Shown: one piece after another, positions 11,688-36,382 of the stretch
Layout: each line of letters starts with the position of its first letter
How positions within the stretch are numbered: position 1 is the first letter of the stretch
IMG/VR virus record: IMGVR_UViG_2654587996_000002
DNA from: a virus
Lineage: Duplodnaviria > Heunggongvirae > Uroviricota > Caudoviricetes
Length of the DNA: 37,878 nt
Reading direction: 5' to 3' (one strand)
Made by a program: the position numbers and the translations under genes
Notes under the pieces: generated by a model
Databases searched by the model: none
What the model saw: only the letters and a program-made list of their open reading frames with translations
Told to the model about the DNA's origin: nothing

Positions 11688-13351
11688 TGAATAACGCCGA
11701 AGAACTCTCCCCCTTACTGACGAATACCGTCTCCACCCGCAAAATTGATCTGGCCGGTGAAAAAGCCCTGCTGGGCGTGGATGTGCCGGACAGCCTTGAT
11801 TTGCCCGGTGATATGCCGGTGTTTCTGGATTATCAGGCCCGCTGGTTTGCGGATGAAAGTCAGGTCTGCATCGCGGAAAAATCCCGCCGCACCGGGCTTA
11901 CCTGGGCGGAAGCCGGGCGTAACGTCATTACCGCTGCAAAACCGAAGCGGCGTGGTGGCCGTAATGTGTTTTATGTGGGGTCAAAGCAGGAGATGGCGCT
12001 GGAATATATTTCTGCCTGCGCGCTGTTCTCCCGTGCCTTTAACCAGCTGGCAGATGCTGATGTGTATGAACAGACCTTCTGGGATCGGGATAAAAAAGAA
12101 GAAATTCTGACCTACATGATCCGCTTTCCGAACAGTGGATTCAAAATTCAGGCACTGTCTTCCCGTCCGTCAAACCTGCGCGGCCTTCAGGGGGATGTGG
12201 TGATTGATGAAGCCGCGTTCCACGAGTCACTGGATGAGCTTCTCAAGGCGGCAATGGCGCTTACCATGTGGGGCGCACGCGTGCGCATTATTTCCACGCA
12301 TAACGGCGTCGATAATCTGTTTAATCAGTACATTCAGGAGGCCCGCGAGGGGCGCAAGGATTACAGCGTCCACCGCATAACCCTGGATGATGCCATTGCG
12401 GACGGATTATACCGTCGTATCTGTTACGTCACCGATCAGGAATGGTCACCGGAAAGTGAGCAGAAATGGCGTGATGATCTCTACAAAAACGCCCCGACCC
12501 GTGAGGATGCCGACGAGGAATACGGCTGTATCCCGAAAAAATCCGGCGGTGCCTATATTCCCCACGCGCTTATTGAAATGGCGATGATCCGTGACATCCC
12601 GATTCTGACGTTTGAAGCCCCGGACGACTTCATCAGCCGTGCCGCATGGCTGCGCGAATCGGAAGTTTTAACCTGGTGTGAAGAACATTTAAAACCGCTT
12701 ACAGAGAAATTAAATCCCCGTTCCCGCTTCAGCTTCGGGGAAGACTTTGCCCGCACCGGTGACCTGTCCTGCTTTGTGCTGCTGGAAATCACCGAATCCC
12801 TGGCAAAGCGCGAGGTGTTTCGCGTGGAGCTGCGCAACCTGCCGTATGCCCAGCAGGAACAGGTGATGATGTACATCCTGACCCGCGTTCCGGCGCTGGT
12901 CGGTGCAGCGTTCGACGCCACCGGTAACGGCGGCTATCTGGCAGAGGCCGCACTGCTGGCCTTTGGCCCGGACATCATCGACTGCGTGATGTTGTCGCCG
13001 AAGTGGTACGGCGAGTGGATGCCAAAACTGAAAGCCGAGTTTGAAGATCAGAATATCCTCGTCGCGCGCCATCAGACCACGCTTGATGATTTGCGCCATG
13101 TGAAGGTGGTGAACGGTATCCCGCAAATCGACAAGGGGCGCACGAAGGACCAGAACGCAACGGCTGCGAACGCCCGCCGCCATGGTGATTTTGCCGTGGC
13201 GCTCTGTATGGCAAACCGGGCGTCATATATGGAGGGCTTCATCCTGGATGAATCAGCCTGTCAGGCGCTGCCGGAGCGGTCGCGGGCAATGGAGGGCGGT
13301 TATCGTGATGACGATGAGGCATATCATGAATTTGATCGGGGGTGCTGGTAG
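11687..13351 (+). CDS. terminase large subunit (Mu gp28-like)
   Basis: 554 aa; position between gp27-like and portal; Walker-B-like VVIDEAAF; size typical of Mu-type TerL. Confidence 0.8.
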   Translation: MNNAEELSPLLTNTVSTRKIDLAGEKALLGVDVPDSLDLPGDMPVFLDYQARWFADESQVCIAEKSRRTGLTWAEAGRNVITAAKPKRRGGRNVFYVGSKQEMALEYISACALFSRAFNQLADADVYEQTFWDRDKKEEILTYMIRFPNSGFKIQALSSRPSNLRGLQGDVVIDEAAFHESLDELLKAAMALTMWGARVRIISTHNGVDNLFNQYIQEAREGRKDYSVHRITLDDAIADGLYRRICYVTDQEWSPESEQKWRDDLYKNAPTREDADEEYGCIPKKSGGAYIPHALIEMAMIRDIPILTFEAPDDFISRAAWLRESEVLTWCEEHLKPLTEKLNPRSRFSFGEDFARTGDLSCFVLLEITESLAKREVFRVELRNLPYAQQEQVMMYILTRVPALVGAAFDATGNGGYLAEAALLAFGPDIIDCVMLSPKWYGEWMPKLKAEFEDQNILVARHQTTLDDLRHVKVVNGIPQIDKGRTKDQNATAANARRHGDFAVALCMANRASYMEGFILDESACQALPERSRAMEGGYRDDDEAYHEFDRGCW

Positions 13352-14940
13352 TGGGACGCATCATTGATACTGACGGAAAACCTTTCTCCTTTGACCCGGA
13401 GATGCAGAGTGCCGCGCTGGATATTCCGCAGATTGCCAGCCGTTATGTTGAACATCCGGCTTCGGGTATCAACCCGAACCGGGCGGCGCAGTGCCTTCGC
13501 GGGGCTGAACGTGGCGATCTGATTGCCCAGTCCGATCTGGCCGCTGATATTGAAGAAAAGGACACCCACCTTTTTGCGGAGCTGGGCAAGCGACGTCTTG
13601 CCATTCAGGGGGTGCCATGGAGTATTGAGCCGCCACCAAACGCCAGCGCGAATGAGAAAAAGGACGCGGAAATGCTCGACGAATACCTGCATTCCGCCGA
13701 CTGGTTTGATGCCATGCTGTTTGACGCCACGGATGCCATCCTGAAGGGCTATTCCTGCATGGAAATTGAGCACGGGATGCTCGGTAAAATGCACATCATC
13801 CGCGCCATCCACTGGCGTGACAGCGGCCATTTCTGCCTTAACCCGGATGATTTGAGCGAGCTGCGACTGCGTGACGGCAGCCATGCCGGGGTGGCGTTTC
13901 AGCCCTTTGGCTGGATAGTGCATCAGTCACGTTCACGCACCGGCTACGGCGGCGCAACGGGGCTTGTCAGAACGCTTATCTGGCCGTTCATCTTCAAAAA
14001 CTATTCCGTGCGTGATCTGGCGGAGTTTCTGGAGGTGTACGGCCTGCCGATGAAGGTCGGGAAATACCCGTCCGGGGCAACACCGGAGCAGAAAAGCGCC
14101 CTGATGCGGGCGGTGATGGATATCGGGCGACGTACAGGCGGGATCATCCCGGCCGGGATGTCGCTGGAGTTTCAGGCGGCAGCGAACGGTCAGGCCGATC
14201 CGTTTGAAACCATGATTTCGTGGGGGGAGCGTTCCATCTCCAAAGCAATACTCGGCGGCACGCTGACCACGGAAGCCGGAGACAAAGGCGCACGCTCGCT
14301 GGGTGAGGTGCATAACGAGGTGCGCCGGGAAATCAGGGATTCTGATTTACGGCAGCTGGCTGCAACCCTGAACCGCGATCTGGTGTATCCGCTGTACGCC
14401 CTGAACACCACGCACACTATTGATATCCGCCGTCTGCCACGTATCTGCTTCCAGACCAAAGAACCAGGTGATATCACCAAAATCACCAGTGCGGTGATGC
14501 AGCTCAGTACGGGGATGGATATTTCTGATCCCTGGATACGGGAGCAGACCGGTATTCCGCAGCCCACGCCCGGTGAAGCCATATTCCGTGTCCGTCAGAG
14601 TGGCAATGAACCGGCTCAGACCGACAGGGAAACACCACCGGAAAAACAGGAAAAGACAGAACAGACGGCGCTTTCAGCCCGACTACCGGAAACGAAAAAC
14701 ACGCAGCGTGATGAACTGGACGACATGGGGGACGCGGTGCCTGCCCGCCGTTTACAGGAGGCCATCGATCCGGTGCTGGAGCCGGTCATTGATGCCATCA
14801 GAACGCGGGGGCTGGCGGATGCGCTGGCAGACCTGCCCGCCCTTTATCGTGAAATGGATGATTCCCGCCTGATGACGCTGCTCAGTGATGCCATGTTTGC
14901 TGCGGAAATGAAGGGGATGCTGGATGGCTCAGGGGATTGA
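13342..14940 (+). CDS. portal protein (Mu gp29-like)
   Basis: 532 aa following TerL with 10-nt overlap; acidic/charged C-terminus; conserved Mu order. Confidence 0.75.
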   Translation: MLVVGRIIDTDGKPFSFDPEMQSAALDIPQIASRYVEHPASGINPNRAAQCLRGAERGDLIAQSDLAADIEEKDTHLFAELGKRRLAIQGVPWSIEPPPNASANEKKDAEMLDEYLHSADWFDAMLFDATDAILKGYSCMEIEHGMLGKMHIIRAIHWRDSGHFCLNPDDLSELRLRDGSHAGVAFQPFGWIVHQSRSRTGYGGATGLVRTLIWPFIFKNYSVRDLAEFLEVYGLPMKVGKYPSGATPEQKSALMRAVMDIGRRTGGIIPAGMSLEFQAAANGQADPFETMISWGERSISKAILGGTLTTEAGDKGARSLGEVHNEVRREIRDSDLRQLAATLNRDLVYPLYALNTTHTIDIRRLPRICFQTKEPGDITKITSAVMQLSTGMDISDPWIREQTGIPQPTPGEAIFRVRQSGNEPAQTDRETPPEKQEKTEQTALSARLPETKNTQRDELDDMGDAVPARRLQEAIDPVLEPVIDAIRTRGLADALADLPALYREMDDSRLMTLLSDAMFAAEMKGMLDGSGD

Positions 14941-16255
14941 TTTAGGTTATGCCGCCACGCTTCCCTCAAAAGAGGCGGTGGCATACTTCCGCGCCAAAGG
15001 GGCACATATCAGCTGGAACTGGTTCGAAACAAACGCAGATGTTCATGCCCGTTCATTCACGGCGGCAAAAGTGGCACGCCTGGACGTACTGACCACACTA
15101 CAGGCGGAAGTGCAGCGTGCTGTTGATGAGGGAATTTCACAGAAAGCATTTATCCGCACGCTGACGCCACGCCTGCAAAAGCTGGGATGGTGGGGAAAGC
15201 AGATTGTGGTGGACAGCGACGGTAACGCGGAAGAAGTGCAACTGGGCAGTCCCCGTCGTCTGGCGCTGATTTACAACGTGAACACCCGTGTGGCTTACAA
15301 TGCCGGGCGTTACACGCAGATGATGAACAACACGGACACGCATCCGTTCTGGCAGTATGTGGCGGTCATGGACAGCCGCACCCGCCCGGCGCATTCCGCC
15401 CTTAACGGGCTGGTATTCCGCTATGATGATCCGTTCTGGAAAACACACTACCCGCCCAATGGCTGGAACTGCCGCTGCCGTGTGCGACCATTGTCTCAGG
15501 CCCGTCTGGATGCAATGGGGTTATCCGTTTCATCCGGTGAGGATCATCTCTCCACCCGCAATGTTGAGGCTGGCGTGGATAAACAGACCGGAGAAGTCAG
15601 AGAAATGCCGGTGACCACATATTCAGATGGCACCAGAACCATGACACCGGATGTGGGCTGGTCATATAACCCCGGCTCGGCAGCGTTCGGCACAGACCAG
15701 GCGCTGATCCGCAAACTGATCGAGGTGAAAAGCCCGGCGTTACGGGAAATGGTGGTTCAGGAGATGAACAACAGCCCGGAGCGGCAGCTGGCGTTCCGCA
15801 TCTGGGCAAAAAACATCATGCAGACCCGGCGAGGTGGTAACGATATCCGCACGCTGGGCTTTATGACTGAAAGCATTGCGCAGGCAGTGGAAAGCCGGAC
15901 GGGAACGCCACCGGCCCGCCTGCTGGCGATGAGCGGTAAAAATGTGCTCCATGCAGACAGTGTGAAACATCAGAATGACGGCATCGCCCTGATGCCAGAG
16001 GACTTCGGGCGCTTACCGGCAATGCTGGCAAAGCCAAAAGCGGTGCTGTGGGACAAACGGCACAACAATCTGATGTATATCGTGGAAAATAAGGATGGCA
16101 GTGTGCAGATTGCCGTTAATGCACCGTACAGTCTGAAACGTCAGCCCGACAAACTGGATGTGATTGTGAATGCTTACCGGGTTATCAATATGGATAAGCT
16201 GAAATCGGATATCCGGGGCGGAATGCTTGAGGTGCTGGAAGGACAAATTGATTAA
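14924..16255 (+). CDS. head morphogenesis protein F (Mu gp30-like)
   Basis: 443 aa after portal; conserved Mu order and size. Confidence 0.7.
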   Translation: MAQGIDLGYAATLPSKEAVAYFRAKGAHISWNWFETNADVHARSFTAAKVARLDVLTTLQAEVQRAVDEGISQKAFIRTLTPRLQKLGWWGKQIVVDSDGNAEEVQLGSPRRLALIYNVNTRVAYNAGRYTQMMNNTDTHPFWQYVAVMDSRTRPAHSALNGLVFRYDDPFWKTHYPPNGWNCRCRVRPLSQARLDAMGLSVSSGEDHLSTRNVEAGVDKQTGEVREMPVTTYSDGTRTMTPDVGWSYNPGSAAFGTDQALIRKLIEVKSPALREMVVQEMNNSPERQLAFRIWAKNIMQTRRGGNDIRTLGFMTESIAQAVESRTGTPPARLLAMSGKNVLHADSVKHQNDGIALMPEDFGRLPAMLAKPKAVLWDKRHNNLMYIVENKDGSVQIAVNAPYSLKRQPDKLDVIVNAYRVINMDKLKSDIRGGMLEVLEGQID

Positions 16256-16256
16256 C

Positions 16257-16337
16257 GGTCAGTGGCGGGGGTCGAACCCGCATACATGATCCACCCGGAG
16301 GCAGGCACCGACTTTACCAGTTAAGCGTACACTGACC
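16257..16337 (-). other. tRNA-like structured element (canonical T-arm plus 8-bp acceptor-like stem), not a confident tRNA
   Basis: On - strand: GGTCAGTG ... GCGGG-TTCGACC-CCCGC-CACTGACC. T-arm-like hairpin sits immediately 5' of the 3' acceptor-like strand; D and anticodon arms do not fold canonically by eye. Confidence 0.3.
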
Positions 16338-16376
16338 GCCTGTTTATTTTATATTCATCCTTTATGCGGAGGCAAT

Positions 16377-16850
16377 ATGTCATCCATTGATGCCGCTGTC
16401 GTTGTTGACGTTACGCGTCTCCAGCGGGTGTTTGCCCGGCTTCAGTTTGTGGGCGGCGGAAAAGACCTGGCCCGCAGTGTGGCGGCGAGTCTGTTGTCAT
16501 CGTCAGAAATGGCGTTTGAACAGGAAAAAGAGCCGGACGGCGAACGCTGGCATGACTGGTCAGATCCTTACCGCAAGTGGCGTACCCGTAAGGGATACAC
16601 GCCCGGCAAAATCCTGACGCTGAACGGCGATCTGGCCCGCCGCCTGACCACGGATTATGGCGATACCTGGGCGCTGATTGGATCAAATGAGCCTTATGCA
16701 GCCATTCATCAGTGGGGTGGCCTGCCCGGTATGCCACCGGGACCAGCAGCCATTGGTGCGCGTCCGTATATGGGCTTTGATCAGGTGGCAGAACAGGAGA
16801 TCATGGACGAAATCAGAAAACGCTTTAAAAAGGCCACAGAAACGCCGTAA
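16377..16850 (+). CDS. virion morphogenesis protein G (Mu gp31-like)
   Basis: 157 aa; GGAGG RBS; conserved position between F and I. Confidence 0.65.
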   Translation: MSSIDAAVVVDVTRLQRVFARLQFVGGGKDLARSVAASLLSSSEMAFEQEKEPDGERWHDWSDPYRKWRTRKGYTPGKILTLNGDLARRLTTDYGDTWALIGSNEPYAAIHQWGGLPGMPPGPAAIGARPYMGFDQVAEQEIMDEIRKRFKKATETP

Positions 16851-17027
16851 TGGTTTAAGGTATACAAACACATTACCTTACCCTCTTCAGGCGCGTGTCG
16901 TGATTTTCTAACCTGTATTTAACGGGCTTTAAAATCTGCGTGAAGCGCCTTTCTCATTTTACCCCTGTCAGCACTTTCTGAAGTCCCGCAAAACCTGCCC
17001 TGAAAAACACCGGCTTATGCTGCCGGA

Positions 17028-18152
17028 ATGAAGACGAAAAACACGCCCAAACTTGCTTATGCCATTCTGAATGCCATCAGCCTGTCCGCAGACGGGGACG
17101 GTGACTGGTGTCAGATCATGCCAGCCGGTCGGGTAAAGGCCCGTGACGGTCGCCCGGAAAAACCGGCTGAAGGCTGGCTGATTAACCGTGCGACCGTTGA
17201 GCGCATGGTATCCCGGGTTGTGGCGCTCAATCAGCCGGTAAAAATTGACTACAACCACCAGAGCCTGATTAAGGGGCATCCGGCACCGGCTGCCGGTTTT
17301 GTCATGGCCTCACCGGAAAACTTCCGCTTCAGTGAAGAGCGGGGTTTTGAAGTGCGTCCGAAGTGGAACCCTCCGGCCATTGAACACCTGCGCAATAACG
17401 AGTTTCCCTGGTTTTCCCCGGTGATTGGTTATGACGAAATCACCGGTGAACCTGTTGAGCTTCGGATGCTGGCTATTACCGGTGACCCCGGTCTGACTGG
17501 CATGAATCCTGTCGCCGCACTGTCGGCGGATGACCTTTATAACGCCTTAAACCCTCCTTTAAAGGACACCTCCATGAATGAGCAATTACGCCAGTTGCTG
17601 ACGGCGCTCGGTCTGACCGTGGCTGACGGTGACGAATTTACGCCGGAACTGGGCACGGCGGCGCTGTCTGCCCTTACCGGGATCAAAACCCGTGCGGATG
17701 CGCACGACACCCTGAAAACGCAGGTTGCCAGCCTGTCAGCAGAGCTGGAAACCGCAAAAGGCACACCAACTGGCGGCACTATTGATCTGACGAAATACGT
17801 GCCCGTTGAGACGTATAACGCCCTGCGTACCGAATATGTCGCGCTGTCGGCACAGCACGGCAGCACCACGCTGGAGCAGTTGCTGGATAAGGCCGAGTCC
17901 GAAGGACGCATTTTCAAAAGCGAACGCGGATACATGGAAGGACTCGGACAACAGATTGGCGTTGCAGCACTTTCTGCACAGCTTGACGCCCGCCAGCCGG
18001 TTGCGGCTCTGACCACTCTTCAGACCGACACCGTGACCGTGCCGGATAAAAAGACCGCCACTGCTGTGCTGTCGGCTGAAGATATCGCCGCCGCCCATCT
18101 GCTGGGTAAAACCGAAGCCGAGTTCCTGAAAATGAAAGAGGAAATGCAATAA
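17028..18152 (+). CDS. Mu I-like head protease / scaffold protein
   Basis: 374 aa; helical Ala/Leu-rich C-terminal half typical of scaffold; stop overlaps start of major head gene; preceded by 177-nt intergenic region. Confidence 0.75.
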   Translation: MKTKNTPKLAYAILNAISLSADGDGDWCQIMPAGRVKARDGRPEKPAEGWLINRATVERMVSRVVALNQPVKIDYNHQSLIKGHPAPAAGFVMASPENFRFSEERGFEVRPKWNPPAIEHLRNNEFPWFSPVIGYDEITGEPVELRMLAITGDPGLTGMNPVAALSADDLYNALNPPLKDTSMNEQLRQLLTALGLTVADGDEFTPELGTAALSALTGIKTRADAHDTLKTQVASLSAELETAKGTPTGGTIDLTKYVPVETYNALRTEYVALSAQHGSTTLEQLLDKAESEGRIFKSERGYMEGLGQQIGVAALSAQLDARQPVAALTTLQTDTVTVPDKKTATAVLSAEDIAAAHLLGKTEAEFLKMKEEMQ

Positions 18153-19099
18153 TGCCTACCCCGATTACACCGGCGATGATCACCGCCCTGATGACGGGCT
18201 ACCGTTCTGATTTTCAGGCCGGGATGTCCATGGCTCCGTCGCAGTACCAGAAAATTGCGATGACCGTACCGTCCACGTCGAAATCCAACACCTACGGCTG
18301 GCTGGGGCAGTTCCCGCAGTTCCGTGAGTGGATTGGCTCCCGCGTCATCGAGAAGATGAAAGCCTATGGCTACGCCATCGTGAACAAAACCTTTGAAGGC
18401 ACCGTTGCCATTAGCCGCGATGACTTTGAAGACGACAATCTTGGCATCTACTCTCCGTTGTTCCAGGAGATGGGGCGCGCTGCGGCGGCACAACCGGATG
18501 AACTGGTCTTTGCTGCACTGCGTGACGGGATCAGTGCGGCCTGCTATGACGGCCAGAACTTCTTTGATACCGAACACCCGGTTTACCCCAAAGTGGATGG
18601 CTCCGGTGATGCGCAGATGGTCAGCAATATGTTTGTGGCAAAAACCGGCTCTGTCGGTGCACAGGCGGATTACAGTGGCCCGGCCTGGTATCTGCTCGAC
18701 TGTTCCCGCGCGGTAAAACCGCTGATTTATCAGGATCGCCGCAAGGCCGAACTGGTTGCCCAGACAAAAGTCGATGAAGGCCGTGCGTTTACTGATAACG
18801 AGTTTGTGTTCGGTGCTTCCGCCCGTCGCAATGTGGGCTACGGCTTCTGGCAGATGGCCTACATGATGCAGTCACCGCTGACGCTGGATGCGCTGTGGCA
18901 CGGCTGGTCAGCCATGCGTGACTTTAAGGCTGACGGTGGCCGCAAACTCGGCATCAAACCCACCCATATTGTTGTCCCCACCTCGCTGGAAAAACAGGCG
19001 GTGCAGCTGCTGGAGCGCGAGCTGTTCGCGGACGGTAACACCACCGTCTCTAACGAGATGAAGGGCAAGCTGGAGCTGGTTGTCGCGGATTATCTGTAA
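18152..19099 (+). CDS. major head subunit T (Mu gp34-like)
   Basis: 315 aa (Mu T about 305 aa); follows protease/scaffold; conserved Mu order. Confidence 0.8.
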   Translation: MPTPITPAMITALMTGYRSDFQAGMSMAPSQYQKIAMTVPSTSKSNTYGWLGQFPQFREWIGSRVIEKMKAYGYAIVNKTFEGTVAISRDDFEDDNLGIYSPLFQEMGRAAAAQPDELVFAALRDGISAACYDGQNFFDTEHPVYPKVDGSGDAQMVSNMFVAKTGSVGAQADYSGPAWYLLDCSRAVKPLIYQDRRKAELVAQTKVDEGRAFTDNEFVFGASARRNVGYGFWQMAYMMQSPLTLDALWHGWSAMRDFKADGGRKLGIKPTHIVVPTSLEKQAVQLLERELFADGNTTVSNEMKGKLELVVADYL

Positions 19100-33080: not shown

Positions 33081-35129
33081 ATGTCAGACTCCCAGTGGAA
33101 AATGCTCTCCGCCATGCCCGGAGAGTTTTCAGTCAAGGTTGCCGGTGGCACGGTGGCATTTATTGAAAGTCCTTTCAGGCCTTCGGGTAATAAAGGGGGG
33201 ATCACCTTCGCAGACTGCGTGATCCGCTTCAGCACGAAAGAGCCATTATGGGTAATGCCGGTATCCGGCAATCCCAGCGCAGAAATCACCAGTTCAGGTG
33301 TGACCGGCATTATTCCGATCACATCTGACGTGGCCGGAACACTCACGCCTTCTGACTGGAATGCACCGGATAACGCCGGACCGTCTGGCGGTACAAATGG
33401 CAGCAGTACAGAGCCGGAGTATTACTATGTGCTTCCACTGGCCGGGCAGTCCAACGGGATGGCCTACGGTGAAGGGCTTCCGCTACCGGCTTCATTCGAC
33501 CGCCCTGAACCGCGCATTAAGCAACTGGCACGTCGCAGCACGGTAACGCCCGATGGTACGTCGTGCACATATAACGATATCATTCCCGCAGACCACTGCC
33601 TGCATGATGTGCAGGACATGAGCGGGATAAACCACCCGAAAGCTGACCTGAGTAAAGGGCAGTATGGTTGTGTCGGCCAGGGGCTGCATATTGCCAAAAA
33701 ACTGCTGCCTTATATTCCGCAGAATGCCGGGATACTTCTGGTTCCCTGCTGTCGTGGTGCTTCGGCATTCACCACCGGTGATGACGGCTCATTCAGTGAG
33801 GCCAGCGGTGCTTCCGCTGATTCTTCACGCTGGGGAGCCGGTAAACCCCTGTATCATGACCTGGTAAGCCGTACCAGAGCGGCGCTGGCGAAGAACCCGA
33901 AAAACAAACTTCTGGCAGTGGTCTGGATGCAGGGAGAAGCAGACCTTGCATCGGGAAGTCAGCAGCATAATGGTTTATTCACAGCCATGGTTCAGCAGTT
34001 CAGAACCGACCTGTCTCCACTTGCAGCGCAGTGCGTGAGTGGAAATGCTGCCACGGTGCCGTGGATTTGTGGTGACACCACGTATTACTGGAAAAACACG
34101 TATGCCACGCAGTATGAAACAGTCTATGGAGCATATAAAAATCTGACCGCACAGAATATTTTCTTTGTGCCGTTCCTGACGGATGAGAATGGACAGAACA
34201 CGCCAACGAATGCTCCGGTGGAAGACCCGGATATTGTGGCTGTCGGGTATTACGGTGCGGCATCCCGTACCCAGGGCAGTTTTGTCTCCACACAGCGTGA
34301 CAGCCATTTCAGCTCATGGGCACGCAGGGGCATCATTTCTGACCGTCTGGCCTCAGCCATTCTGCTCCATGCGGGACGCACGGCTGAAGTTATGGGCGGA
34401 CAGGCCGTGCCGCCGGATGAAAAACCATCCCCTGACACGCCATCAACGCCGTCAACGGACGGGAAATCAATGACGACGCTGTTTTCTTACCGCGCATCGG
34501 AGTCAGGCGGAGCACTGACGCCACAGGGCTGGGGGGCGGAAGGCGGTAGTGCTGCTGTTGTGGATGATGTCGGTGCCAGCGGGGGCAAGGCGCTGAAGCT
34601 GACAAAACAGACCGGAAAGTCATGGTTTATGCAGCATGATGCCGGTAATGGTGCCGACCTGCTGGAAAAAGGTGGCCTTGTCAGCTGTCGTTTTAAACTT
34701 GATGGCGCGCTTACGGCTAATCAGTACGCACTGGCGCTGTACTGGCCGGTTTCTTCGCTTCCTCAGGGCGTCACACTGGAAGGTAATGCCGGTCATAACC
34801 TGCTGGCATCGTTTTACGTTCAGAGCGATGCCACAGACCTTATCGTGATGTACCACAAGGGTAATCCAGACCAGAACACGAAGCTGGGTTCATTCGGTGC
34901 ATTTAATAACGAGTGGCATACGCTGGCATTCCGTTTTGCCGGTAATAACAGCATTCAGGTGACGCCGGTGATTGATGGTAAGAACGGGGAACCGTTCATG
35001 CTGTCTCAGTCACCTGTCGGTTCTTTTGCGGCAGACAAGTTACGCCTGACCGATATCACCAGTAATGCAACGTATCCGGTACTGATTGACAGCATTTTGG
35101 TGGAAGTGAATAACCCGTCAGCAGGATAA
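33081..35129 (+). CDS. large accessory protein: SASA-like carbohydrate O-acetylesterase core plus C-terminal lectin/LamG-like domain
   Basis: 682 aa; LPLAGQSNGMAYGEG (GQSN motif) and VVWMQGEADLASG (QGE motif) as in sialate O-acetylesterase-like esterases; Gly/Ser/Thr/Pro linkers; C-terminal ~200 aa resembles concanavalin/LamG-type carbohydrate-binding folds. Confidence 0.6.
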   Translation: MSDSQWKMLSAMPGEFSVKVAGGTVAFIESPFRPSGNKGGITFADCVIRFSTKEPLWVMPVSGNPSAEITSSGVTGIIPITSDVAGTLTPSDWNAPDNAGPSGGTNGSSTEPEYYYVLPLAGQSNGMAYGEGLPLPASFDRPEPRIKQLARRSTVTPDGTSCTYNDIIPADHCLHDVQDMSGINHPKADLSKGQYGCVGQGLHIAKKLLPYIPQNAGILLVPCCRGASAFTTGDDGSFSEASGASADSSRWGAGKPLYHDLVSRTRAALAKNPKNKLLAVVWMQGEADLASGSQQHNGLFTAMVQQFRTDLSPLAAQCVSGNAATVPWICGDTTYYWKNTYATQYETVYGAYKNLTAQNIFFVPFLTDENGQNTPTNAPVEDPDIVAVGYYGAASRTQGSFVSTQRDSHFSSWARRGIISDRLASAILLHAGRTAEVMGGQAVPPDEKPSPDTPSTPSTDGKSMTTLFSYRASESGGALTPQGWGAEGGSAAVVDDVGASGGKALKLTKQTGKSWFMQHDAGNGADLLEKGGLVSCRFKLDGALTANQYALALYWPVSSLPQGVTLEGNAGHNLLASFYVQSDATDLIVMYHKGNPDQNTKLGSFGAFNNEWHTLAFRFAGNNSIQVTPVIDGKNGEPFMLSQSPVGSFAADKLRLTDITSNATYPVLIDSILVEVNNPSAG

Positions 35130-36196: not shown

Positions 36197-36382
36197 ATGT
36201 ATCGAAACATACGGTGCCGACACTGCAATAAGCTACTGGCACGGGCCAGTTTCAGCTATCTGGAAGTAAAATGTCCGCGCTGCAAAACCCTCAATCAAAT
36301 CACATCTCAGAGCGCCACAGAGCACCCCACATACACAAGGAAATCCTGCCGTGGGGAACAAGAAACATTACTTTCAGTCTGA
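36197..36382 (+). CDS. com: Com-like zinc-finger translational activator
   Basis: MYRNIRCRHCNKLLARASFSYLEVKCPRCKTLNQ has the CxxC...CxxC arrangement and N-terminal similarity to Mu Com (recalled MKSIRCKNCNKLL...RCPRCK); AGGAGG RBS; 3' end overlaps start of the downstream modification gene as com does with mom. Confidence 0.8.
   Translation: MYRNIRCRHCNKLLARASFSYLEVKCPRCKTLNQITSQSATEHPTYTRKSCRGEQETLLSV

Follow-up and report, generated by a model that had tools for sequence, protein, structure and literature searches.

What does a structure shaped like a tRNA do on the minus strand of a phage head operon, between two genes that are read from the plus strand? The question arises from a 37,878-nucleotide stretch of DNA, IMG/VR virus record IMGVR_UViG_2654587996_000002 (here called the window, always at its full length), which is a complete Mu-like prophage with its late genes on the plus strand. 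In the 121-nt gap between the head genes F and G, antisense to the late operon, lies an element that a first-pass annotation, made from the letters alone, had noticed for its acceptor-like stem and its T arm. Three explanations had been offered: a degenerate tRNA, a tRNA-derived regulatory RNA or a structured processing site in the late transcript. We find that the element belongs to a conserved family of tRNA-shaped RNAs that is under selection as minus-strand RNA, that it is predicted to be unable to decode, and that it occurs together with one particular form of the C-terminal domain of F, which it may serve to neutralise. The locus is laid out as follows, R1 being a covariance model of the family.

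14924-16255, plus strand: F (MuF, gp30-like), stop codon at 16253-16255
16257-16337, minus strand: tRNA-like RNA gene, 81 nt, bounded by the two strands of the acceptor stem; 31.0 bits with RF00005, 90.2 bits with R1, annotated by PGAP as tRNA-OTHER at the identical E. coli locus
16330-16337, minus strand: 5' strand of the acceptor stem, GGUCAGUG, positions -1 to 7, pairing with 16257-16264
16309-16327, minus strand: D arm, stem CGCUU/AAG(U)CG of 5 bp with one bulged U, loop AACUGGUA with A14, A15, G18, G19 and A21
16287-16307, minus strand: central hairpin UG-C-CUGCC-UCCG-GGUGG-AU-CA, closed by a tetraloop, in place of an anticodon arm
16282-16286, minus strand: variable loop UGUAU (U[GU]UAU is kept in most members)
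16265-16281, minus strand: T arm GCGGG-UUCGACC-CCCGC; three of five pairs covary, GGUUCRA is nearly invariant
16257-16264, minus strand: 3' strand of the acceptor stem, CACUGACC, with no encoded CCA, 1 base from the stop codon of F
16346-16375, minus strand: sigma-70-like promoter TTGCCT-18-TAAAAT, its -10 hexamer ending 8 nt before the 5' end of the RNA
16377-16850, plus strand: G

Each sequence feature that had been noticed is there. The element does lie between F and G, and its 81 nt agree with the length of about 80 nt that had been estimated. On the minus strand GGTCAGTG (16337-16330) pairs with CACTGACC (16264-16257) in the 8-bp stem described, the T arm GCGGG-TTCGACC-CCCGC adjoins the 3' acceptor strand at 16281-16265, and the D loop AACTGGTA is present at 16322-16315. 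The first-pass annotation could fold neither a canonical D stem nor a canonical anticodon stem. It was right about the latter, but a D stem exists: it has 5 bp and one bulge, and all five of its pairs covary among relatives. The nucleotides that make tertiary contacts in tRNA are kept as well (U8, A14, A15 with U48, G18G19, A21, T54-A58 and C56). Since they are retained, an L-shape would be expected by analogy with tRNA structure, and U48 could form a Levitt pair with A15. In the central arm a kink-turn was considered and dropped, the tandem A.G pairs standing in the wrong order. Anti-Shine-Dalgarno pairing by the CCUCC of the window hairpin was likewise set aside, this sequence not being conserved (it is CCUUC in locus L049, for example).

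Folding energies of the single sequence are a weak guide (minimum-free-energy z-scores of -1.8 for the minus strand and -1.1 for the plus strand), and it is the comparative data that decide instead. Loci were fetched in three ways, via the G protein, via DNA patterns and via the C-terminal domain of F; a search of genome contigs with a single protein returned two loci only. The model R1 was built from ten variants and finds the window copy as its sole match within the window. Already among four E. coli lineages, 77-100% identical, the acceptor and T stems carry compensatory changes and the central segment is hypervariable. Across 57 distinct homologues, 98.1% of the pair cells in three helices form standard pairs, both partners change at 15 of the 18 pairs, and covariation scores 0.56 where shuffles give 0.19, none of 500 of them reaching the observed value; the alignment was fitted to the model, so that these figures are somewhat inflated, and unfitted MAFFT alignments give the same changes. 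When the pairing partners are slid, pairing drops to 59% or less. Changes on both sides affect seven of the eight acceptor pairs across the family, the -1:73 pair included, and in the D stem they take forms such as G:C to U.G or U:A and C:G to A:U. The D loop is nearly constant, being invariant in the first four lineages and showing occasional substitutions or a 1-nt deletion elsewhere. The comparison of the F-G region across related phages, which had been proposed as a check, finds the stems conserved.

The same alignment tells which strand is under selection. It contains 60 G.U pairs and only three A.C pairs, and because of this imbalance the selected molecule is the minus-strand RNA and not the late mRNA or the DNA. 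This also speaks against the processing site in the late transcript that had been suggested earlier, since the late transcript comes from the opposite strand, where the 60 G.U pairs would become A.C mismatches.

The RNA has the shape of a tRNA, but its relatives argue against its being one. A focused scan of 16200-16420, the covariance-model check that had been suggested for this site, matches RF00005 on the minus strand at 31.0 bits, where the gathering score is 29 (E = 5.9e-5, model positions 1-71 end to end); the margin is small, and the alignment skips the anticodon arm as a local gap. Rfam scans of the whole window, in gathering and in E-value mode, did not match the element, which is an effect of the speed filters, by which borderline structured RNAs can be lost. 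In default mode the RF00005 threshold is passed by only four of 20 related loci, and ARAGORN finds no tRNA in the window or in four related loci and no transfer-messenger RNA (tmRNA) in the window. The F-G junction is carried by 230 of 5426 complete E. coli genomes (about 4%), and in most of these 230 the RefSeq/PGAP annotation places a tRNA-OTHER, with no isotype, at the same site and strand.

The segment between the D and T arms was folded in 56 distinct relatives. A 7-nt loop appeared in none; the loops have 4 nt in 38 of them (UUCG, UCCG, GCAA, GUAA and others) and 3 nt in nine, and the segment as a whole varies from 19 to 38 nt. Because a hairpin of no fixed length, mostly with a tetraloop at its tip, stands where the anticodon arm should be, the RNA is predicted to be a non-decoding one. 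An anticodon arm with 5-bp stem, 7-nt loop, U33 and purine 37 is absent from the window copy, whose hairpin has a UCCG tetraloop. Instead of a 7-bp acceptor stem with an unpaired discriminator there are 8 bp, with a -1:73 pair that forms and covaries, and no lineage encodes a CCA end. The paired extra 5' G had been likened to G-1:C73 of tRNA-His. The geometry of this comparison stands, the -1:73 pair being real and covarying; the identity does not, as the pair is G:C in 21 relatives, A:U in 15, U:A in nine, G.U in three, U.G in one and something else in seven. A tmRNA-like identity was rejected too (there is no G3:U70; position 3:70 is mostly C:G or U:A and never G.U), and so was the 8/5 geometry of tRNA-Sec as a meaningful identity.

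The RNA appears to be expressed from its own signal. TTGCCT-18-TAAAAT is the sole sigma-70-like site in 16000-16600, and its -35 hexamer overlaps the reverse complement of the Shine-Dalgarno sequence of G (GGAGG, 16368-16372). A promoter stands at the same place in 45 of 54 distinct upstream flanks (score of at least 8 out of 12; mean 8.35 against 3.85 in shuffles), with the -10 hexamer ending 5-13 nt upstream of the RNA. The sequences themselves differ by lineage, for instance TTGAAC-17-TATACT or TATAAT, with extended -10 forms, and the promoter is lacking only at internal copies of arrays and in the Edwardsiella lineage. It places the predicted start of transcription at the acceptor stem or a few nt before it. 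In one lineage a canonical intrinsic terminator follows the RNA after 3 nt, ahead of the stop codon of F. Judged by its promoter, the element is a predicted independent gene of the minus strand. Strong purifying and compensatory selection together with an own promoter argue for a functional non-decoding RNA and not a decaying gene, and on these grounds the degenerate tRNA of the first-pass annotation is a misleading description.

In the phages the RNA behaves as a cassette of about 120 nt between F and G. Phage Mu is without the element, and there F and G overlap. In 80 viral loci anchored on G, the F-G gap measures 111-173 nt wherever the RNA is present, and in loci without RNA the two genes overlap or are separated by 41 nt at most. 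Named hosts are E. coli, Salmonella, Klebsiella oxytoca, Arsenophonus and Edwardsiella; a Serratia relative is without the element. Among the isolated phage genomes that were searched, only two records of Shiga toxin (Stx) phages contain the element, both with an inserted Mu-like phage. Going by these loci, it is apparently a family of Mu-like prophages of Enterobacterales. We also observed a family member on an environmental contig (L134; 4560-4631, 6358-6429), 1.8 kb from an apparently genuine tRNA-Gly(CCC), and no F or G homologue was detected. The family may extend beyond the Mu-like F-G context and beyond Enterobacterales.

The partner of the RNA is suggested by the neighbouring end of F, a link that the first-pass annotation had not made.

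15833-16252, plus strand: C-terminal domain of F, its last 140 residues, with Pfam MuF_C (PF18819) on residues 347-429; a predicted BECR-fold RNase domain
15938-15970, plus strand: Lys/His motif KNVLHADSVKH, F residues 339-349, located in what are predicted to be pre-alpha helices of MuF-C (PBECR)

MuF-C has been classed as a PBECR RNase domain, with the Mu copy called inactive and orthologues predicted to be active, and MuF-fused domains have been argued to be effectors that are likely delivered into the host cell (Iyer et al., PMC5512222). When the C-terminal 135 residues of F are aligned for 45 distinct loci, the motifs K-x-x-x-H-x-D-S-x-[KR]-H and [IV]-N-x-Y-[RK] are found in all 32 F proteins that come with the RNA. 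In all 13 F proteins that come without it, that of Mu included, the motif helix is deleted or degenerate and the second motif is absent. On a neighbour-joining tree of the N-terminal 270 residues of F, from which the C-terminal domain was left out, RNA-positive and RNA-negative phages interleave, which requires at least six independent switches, and in each the RNA and the motif go together. A third, independent sample, anchored on the F domain, gave the same picture: 27 of 30 newly searched loci carry the RNA, on the opposite strand and 0-90 nt past the F stop codon. These include domains only 33-40% identical to that of the window (HANSxKH), whose RNAs are to a like degree divergent cloverleaves with an 8-bp acceptor. 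Of the three loci without RNA, one has a truncated domain, one a motif-negative domain with abutting G, and one lies at a contig end. No recombinant haplotype, with the motif and without the RNA or the reverse, was found in about 65 distinct F loci of 33-100% identity. Presence of Pfam MuF_C alone was tried as a predictor of the RNA and rejected, for Mu and other negatives still score weakly; it is the His motif that discriminates. Going by this strict co-occurrence, we infer that the RNA is a partner of the MuF-C/PBECR domain of F.

The association extends to the type of RNA. Three types can be told apart, type A like the window copy, type B like the copy in Sp18 (the Mu-like prophage of O157 Sakai) and type C in the remaining lineages, and the type follows the final 25 or so residues of F even where the F backbones differ. 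AlphaFold2 models the C-terminal 140 residues with confidence (predicted local distance difference test, pLDDT, 87.7; predicted template modelling score, pTM, 0.84): two short helices (K36/H40; K45/H46) come first, then a longer one, four strands, another helix and one more strand. This order, as pre-alpha, alpha and beta1-4, is the one described for colicin-like BECR RNases, with the active-site His in the pre-alpha helix after a Lys (bioRxiv 10.64898/2026.08.28.747851). By that comparison the Lys and His of KNVLHADSVKH are candidate catalytic residues. A Foldseek search against PDB and a PDB sequence search with the F C-terminal domain returned nothing significant; the predicted BECR fold draws mainly on the literature and the motif, its structural support being weak. 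In the same preprint (bioRxiv 10.64898/2026.08.28.747851), MuF-fused BECR-Tox3 domains have a conserved downstream protein that is read as an immunity gene. The downstream slot that elsewhere holds a protein immunity gene is here taken by the RNA.

Copies outside the standard position add to this. On the metagenomic contigs L146 (1028-1635) and L140 (122-831), which are both short and poorly covered, a copy of the RNA stands on each side of a degenerate or frameshifted piece of the F C-terminal domain, immediately ahead of G. The F-domain fragment and the second RNA lie beyond the main module on its downstream side. The arrangement resembles the displaced orphan toxin-immunity cassettes of polymorphic toxin loci. 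In E. coli JNEC-KY203 (NZ_AP045179.1; L164, 14132-14434) there are three tandem copies, one of each RNA type, and the same array is found in L157 (1131-1433) and also in L148, L151 and L155. It ends an island of about 11 kb between yicC and dinD, at the dinD-proximal end. The island carries genes for an integrase, AntA/AntB, Icd-like proteins, a toprim/DUF927 primase, PerC and a Mor-family activator, and no F gene was found near the array. The copies share a common acceptor-stem sequence, are separated by spacers of about 22 nt and are followed by a terminator; family arrays in the island hold two or three copies. PGAP annotates two of the three, one of them as tRNA-Tyr, and the arm of this copy is a 16-nt palindrome that allows even-sized loops only. 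The island resembles a phage satellite, with the Mor activator hinting at a Mu-like helper.

Two further sites were noted. In L132 (2290-3765; L116 has the same sequence) a family member stands directly upstream of, and in the same orientation as, a DUF2971 gene matching PDC-S31, a candidate defence family of PADLOC, in an element that also has Mor, a gpT-like head gene and an AAA_13 ATPase. In L163 (321-1444) a family member stands directly upstream of an unrelated gene for a 287-aa membrane-like protein, again in the same orientation. The site looks like a hotspot for cargo or defence genes.

How might an RNA of this kind act on F? We propose, by analogy and with moderate confidence, that it neutralises the MuF-C domain as an uncleavable tRNA mimic and so provides RNA immunity to a virion-borne RNase. 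F, with its predicted colicin-D-like BECR RNase domain, probably travels in the virion and would reach the cytoplasm together with the DNA. What the mimic retains is the body of a tRNA, on which a tRNA-directed RNase would dock; with no 7-nt anticodon loop and with a paired discriminator it would bind the nuclease, stay uncut and neutralise it. Because host RNA polymerase would read the constitutive promoter, the RNA could be made in lysogens and right after DNA entry, and an RNA antidote, needing no translation, could still be produced once a tRNase had shut protein synthesis down. In this way the injected nuclease would be kept from harming lysogens and freshly infected cells. Orphan copies and the three-type island array would provide cross-protection against F of different phage lineages, and satellite-like islands with all three types would survive delivery by, or attack from, different helper lineages. 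The wider claim, that these paralogous anticodon-less tRNA mimics are an RNA immunity to a virion-delivered colicin-D-like tRNase and that the satellite arrays cover all three types, is one we make tentatively, as something that may well turn out otherwise.

Several points weigh against the immunity model. Known BECR tRNases recognise mainly the anticodon loop, and a mimic that lacks this loop might not bind. F is made late, in a cell near lysis, and the producing cell may not need immunity. The structural match of the F C-terminal domain is weak and its RNase activity is a prediction. The motif lies only about 300 nt from the RNA gene, and co-inheritance of one block could yield much of the correlation between RNA and motif and of the co-variation between RNA type and F tail. 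Finally, in most lineages no terminator marks the 3' end of the RNA, and a CCA is encoded in none.

Other readings have to be weighed against this one. If the RNA were a cofactor, substrate or cargo of the F C-terminal domain, bound and packaged or processed by F and delivered or used in infection, the strict co-occurrence with motif-positive F and the adjacency of the two would fit as well, and an RNA-binding role of MuF-C has been suggested (Iyer et al., PMC5512222). We regard this as rather unlikely, for a gene that is antisense to F and has a constitutive-type promoter is not co-expressed with F by design, the arrays sit in an island without F, and the orphan copies look like orphan immunity genes. 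Inhibition is favoured over a cofactor role because of the antisense orientation, the constitutive-type promoter, the orphan copies in the F-less island and the precedent of colicin D. The RNA could also be an accessory ('moron') tRNA mimic with a target unrelated to F, such as a decoy for a tRNA-directed defence or toxin of the host or a rival, or a handle for tRNA-processing enzymes, and its association with F would then be linkage only. Its conserved features are generic features of the tRNA body, and family members occur away from F, in the satellite-like island and upstream of the candidate defence gene DUF2971/PDC-S31. We consider this reading unlikely, given that at least six switches and about 65 distinct F loci have left no recombinant haplotype. 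Less probable again is a cis-antisense or transcription-interference regulator that opposes late-operon transcription, or pairs with the F-G junction or the 3' end of F, and tunes F or G in the manner of a type I antitoxin. Such a role would suit a gene that is antisense to structural genes in all Mu-like contexts, whose -35 hexamer overlaps the ribosome-binding region of G and which in most lineages has no terminator before the coding sequence of F. It would leave unexplained the conserved tertiary nucleotides of tRNA and the compensatory changes in three helices; moreover, one lineage terminates 3 nt after the RNA, before F, and the island arrays have no antisense partner.

The remaining two readings are the least likely. 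An element of the late mRNA on the plus strand, acting as terminator, attenuator or processing site, or else a DNA site (a target of integration or recombination) would be at home inside a late operon, and tRNA genes are common integration targets. It is nevertheless very improbable, as the ratio of G.U to A.C pairs speaks for selection on the minus-strand RNA, no T-run follows any plus-strand hairpin, and compensatory changes in the D stem are not expected of a DNA site. We give hardly any credence to a tRNA that truly decodes through an odd anticodon arm, or to a tRNA pseudogene in decay, in spite of the RF00005 gathering score passed in the focused scan and the tRNA-Tyr label that PGAP gives to one array copy. 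The arm of 19-38 nt with its tetraloops never offers a 7-nt loop in the 56 relatives, ARAGORN reports none, 16 of 20 loci fall below the Rfam threshold in default mode, and the palindromic arm of the 'Tyr' copy gives even-sized loops only. A pseudogene would not be expected to show 98% pairing, 15 covarying pairs and a conserved promoter.

The region of interest is identical to that of a prophage of E. coli FORC_069, which lies inside a fimbrial usher gene. The other head genes nearby are these.

13342-14940, plus strand: portal
17028-18152, plus strand: protease I
18152-19099, plus strand: major head protein T

The intergenic region between G and I (16851-17027, 177 nt) corresponds to the spacer that holds a strong gyrase cut site in the phage Mu record. 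A 77-codon open reading frame with a TTG start (window 16013-16246, minus strand) lies 3' of the RNA gene and antisense within F, and is probably spurious. After the invertase and the invertible tail-fibre segment there is a 682-aa open reading frame (window 33081-35129, plus strand), annotated as DUF6645 in the identical E. coli prophage, which may be accessory cargo; it is followed at the right end by Com and Mom-like genes (36351-37878).

The tRNA-like call at this site is not new, since automatic annotation already has it as tRNA-OTHER. In the literature that we searched, coverage of which is incomplete, we found neither the RNA family described, nor its build without an anticodon, nor its tie to MuF-C. 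What was an unexplained tRNA-OTHER in about 4% of complete E. coli genomes becomes a defined RNA family with a testable partner. If the immunity model is true, it would give a first handle on the function of MuF-C/PBECR in Mu-type head proteins, which is still a prediction in the literature. It would mean that a nuclease effector carried by a virion can be held in check by an RNA that copies its substrate, and not by a protein. A polymorphic-toxin system would then have an RNA as its immunity partner, the tRNA fold would have been put to a new use, and the accumulation of such RNAs in satellites and prophages would be accounted for. Should the link to F fail, there still remains a robustly covarying, promoter-equipped, non-decoding tRNA-shaped RNA that is antisense in a phage late operon, of a kind that default tRNA and Rfam pipelines miss or mislabel.

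Compared with canonical tRNAs (RF00005, phage tRNAs included), the RNA shares the acceptor stem, the D and T arms, the 5-nt variable loop and the tertiary-contact nucleotides. It differs in having no 7-nt anticodon loop and no fixed arm length, in its 8-bp acceptor and 5-bp D stem, and in its position antisense to an operon. With tRNA-His it has the extra acceptor pair in common (8 bp), and the window copy has G:C there and GGU as its first three 5' nucleotides; the identity element of histidyl-tRNA synthetase, however, is not conserved in the family and there is no His anticodon. The mascRNA and the t-elements of plant mitochondria are tRNA-like and have no functional anticodon. The mascRNA is cut from a longer RNA, unlike the RNA described here, which has its own promoter. 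Mimicry of the top half or elbow of tRNA without a functional anticodon is also known from the tRNA-like domain of tmRNA and from the bacterial Y RNA YrlA (bioRxiv 10.1101/312249). Unlike tmRNA, our RNA has neither G3:U70 nor an mRNA module, and unlike YrlA it ends at the acceptor stem. As with other non-decoding tRNA-like RNAs, it is probably handled by tRNA-processing enzymes. The C4 RNAs of P1/P7 and the CI RNA of P4, which are immunity RNAs, are RNase P substrates (PMC5499578). These too are small RNAs of phages and a satellite with tRNA-like processing and an immunity role, but they act by antisense pairing through their loops, and the RNA here has non-conserved tetraloops; the Rfam scan of the whole window and the focused scan gave no match to C4.

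Among toxin systems, several comparisons can be drawn. In type III toxin-antitoxin systems (ToxIN-like), ToxI consists of pseudoknot repeats that are cut by the toxin and are encoded upstream on the same strand. As in these systems, a structured RNA would neutralise an endoribonuclease directly, and tandem RNA units occur. In contrast to ToxI, the RNA described here has a tRNA fold, is usually a single unit and is encoded past the 3' end of the F gene, on the other strand and from a promoter of its own; the predicted nuclease domain belongs to a virion protein. With the MuF-fused BECR toxin-immunity modules (Jamet 2017; Iyer 2017; BECR-Tox3/DUF4926) the locus shares a variable C-terminal domain, of predicted RNase type, on a MuF head protein and a tightly linked partner directly downstream. 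As in polymorphic-toxin modules generally, the type of the partner tracks the type of the toxin C-terminus, and displaced orphan modules and partner arrays are found elsewhere. The difference is that an RNA takes the partner's place, encoded on the other strand under a promoter of its own, and that toxicity and protection are predicted only. The nearest precedent for the proposed mechanism is colicin D, whose immunity protein ImmD is called a 'tRNA-mimicking immunity protein' in the title of the paper cited for it. In both cases a BECR-fold tRNase would be neutralised by imitation of its tRNA substrate, as proposed here for F; ImmD is a protein mimic, and the inhibitor that we propose would be an RNA with the tRNA fold itself.

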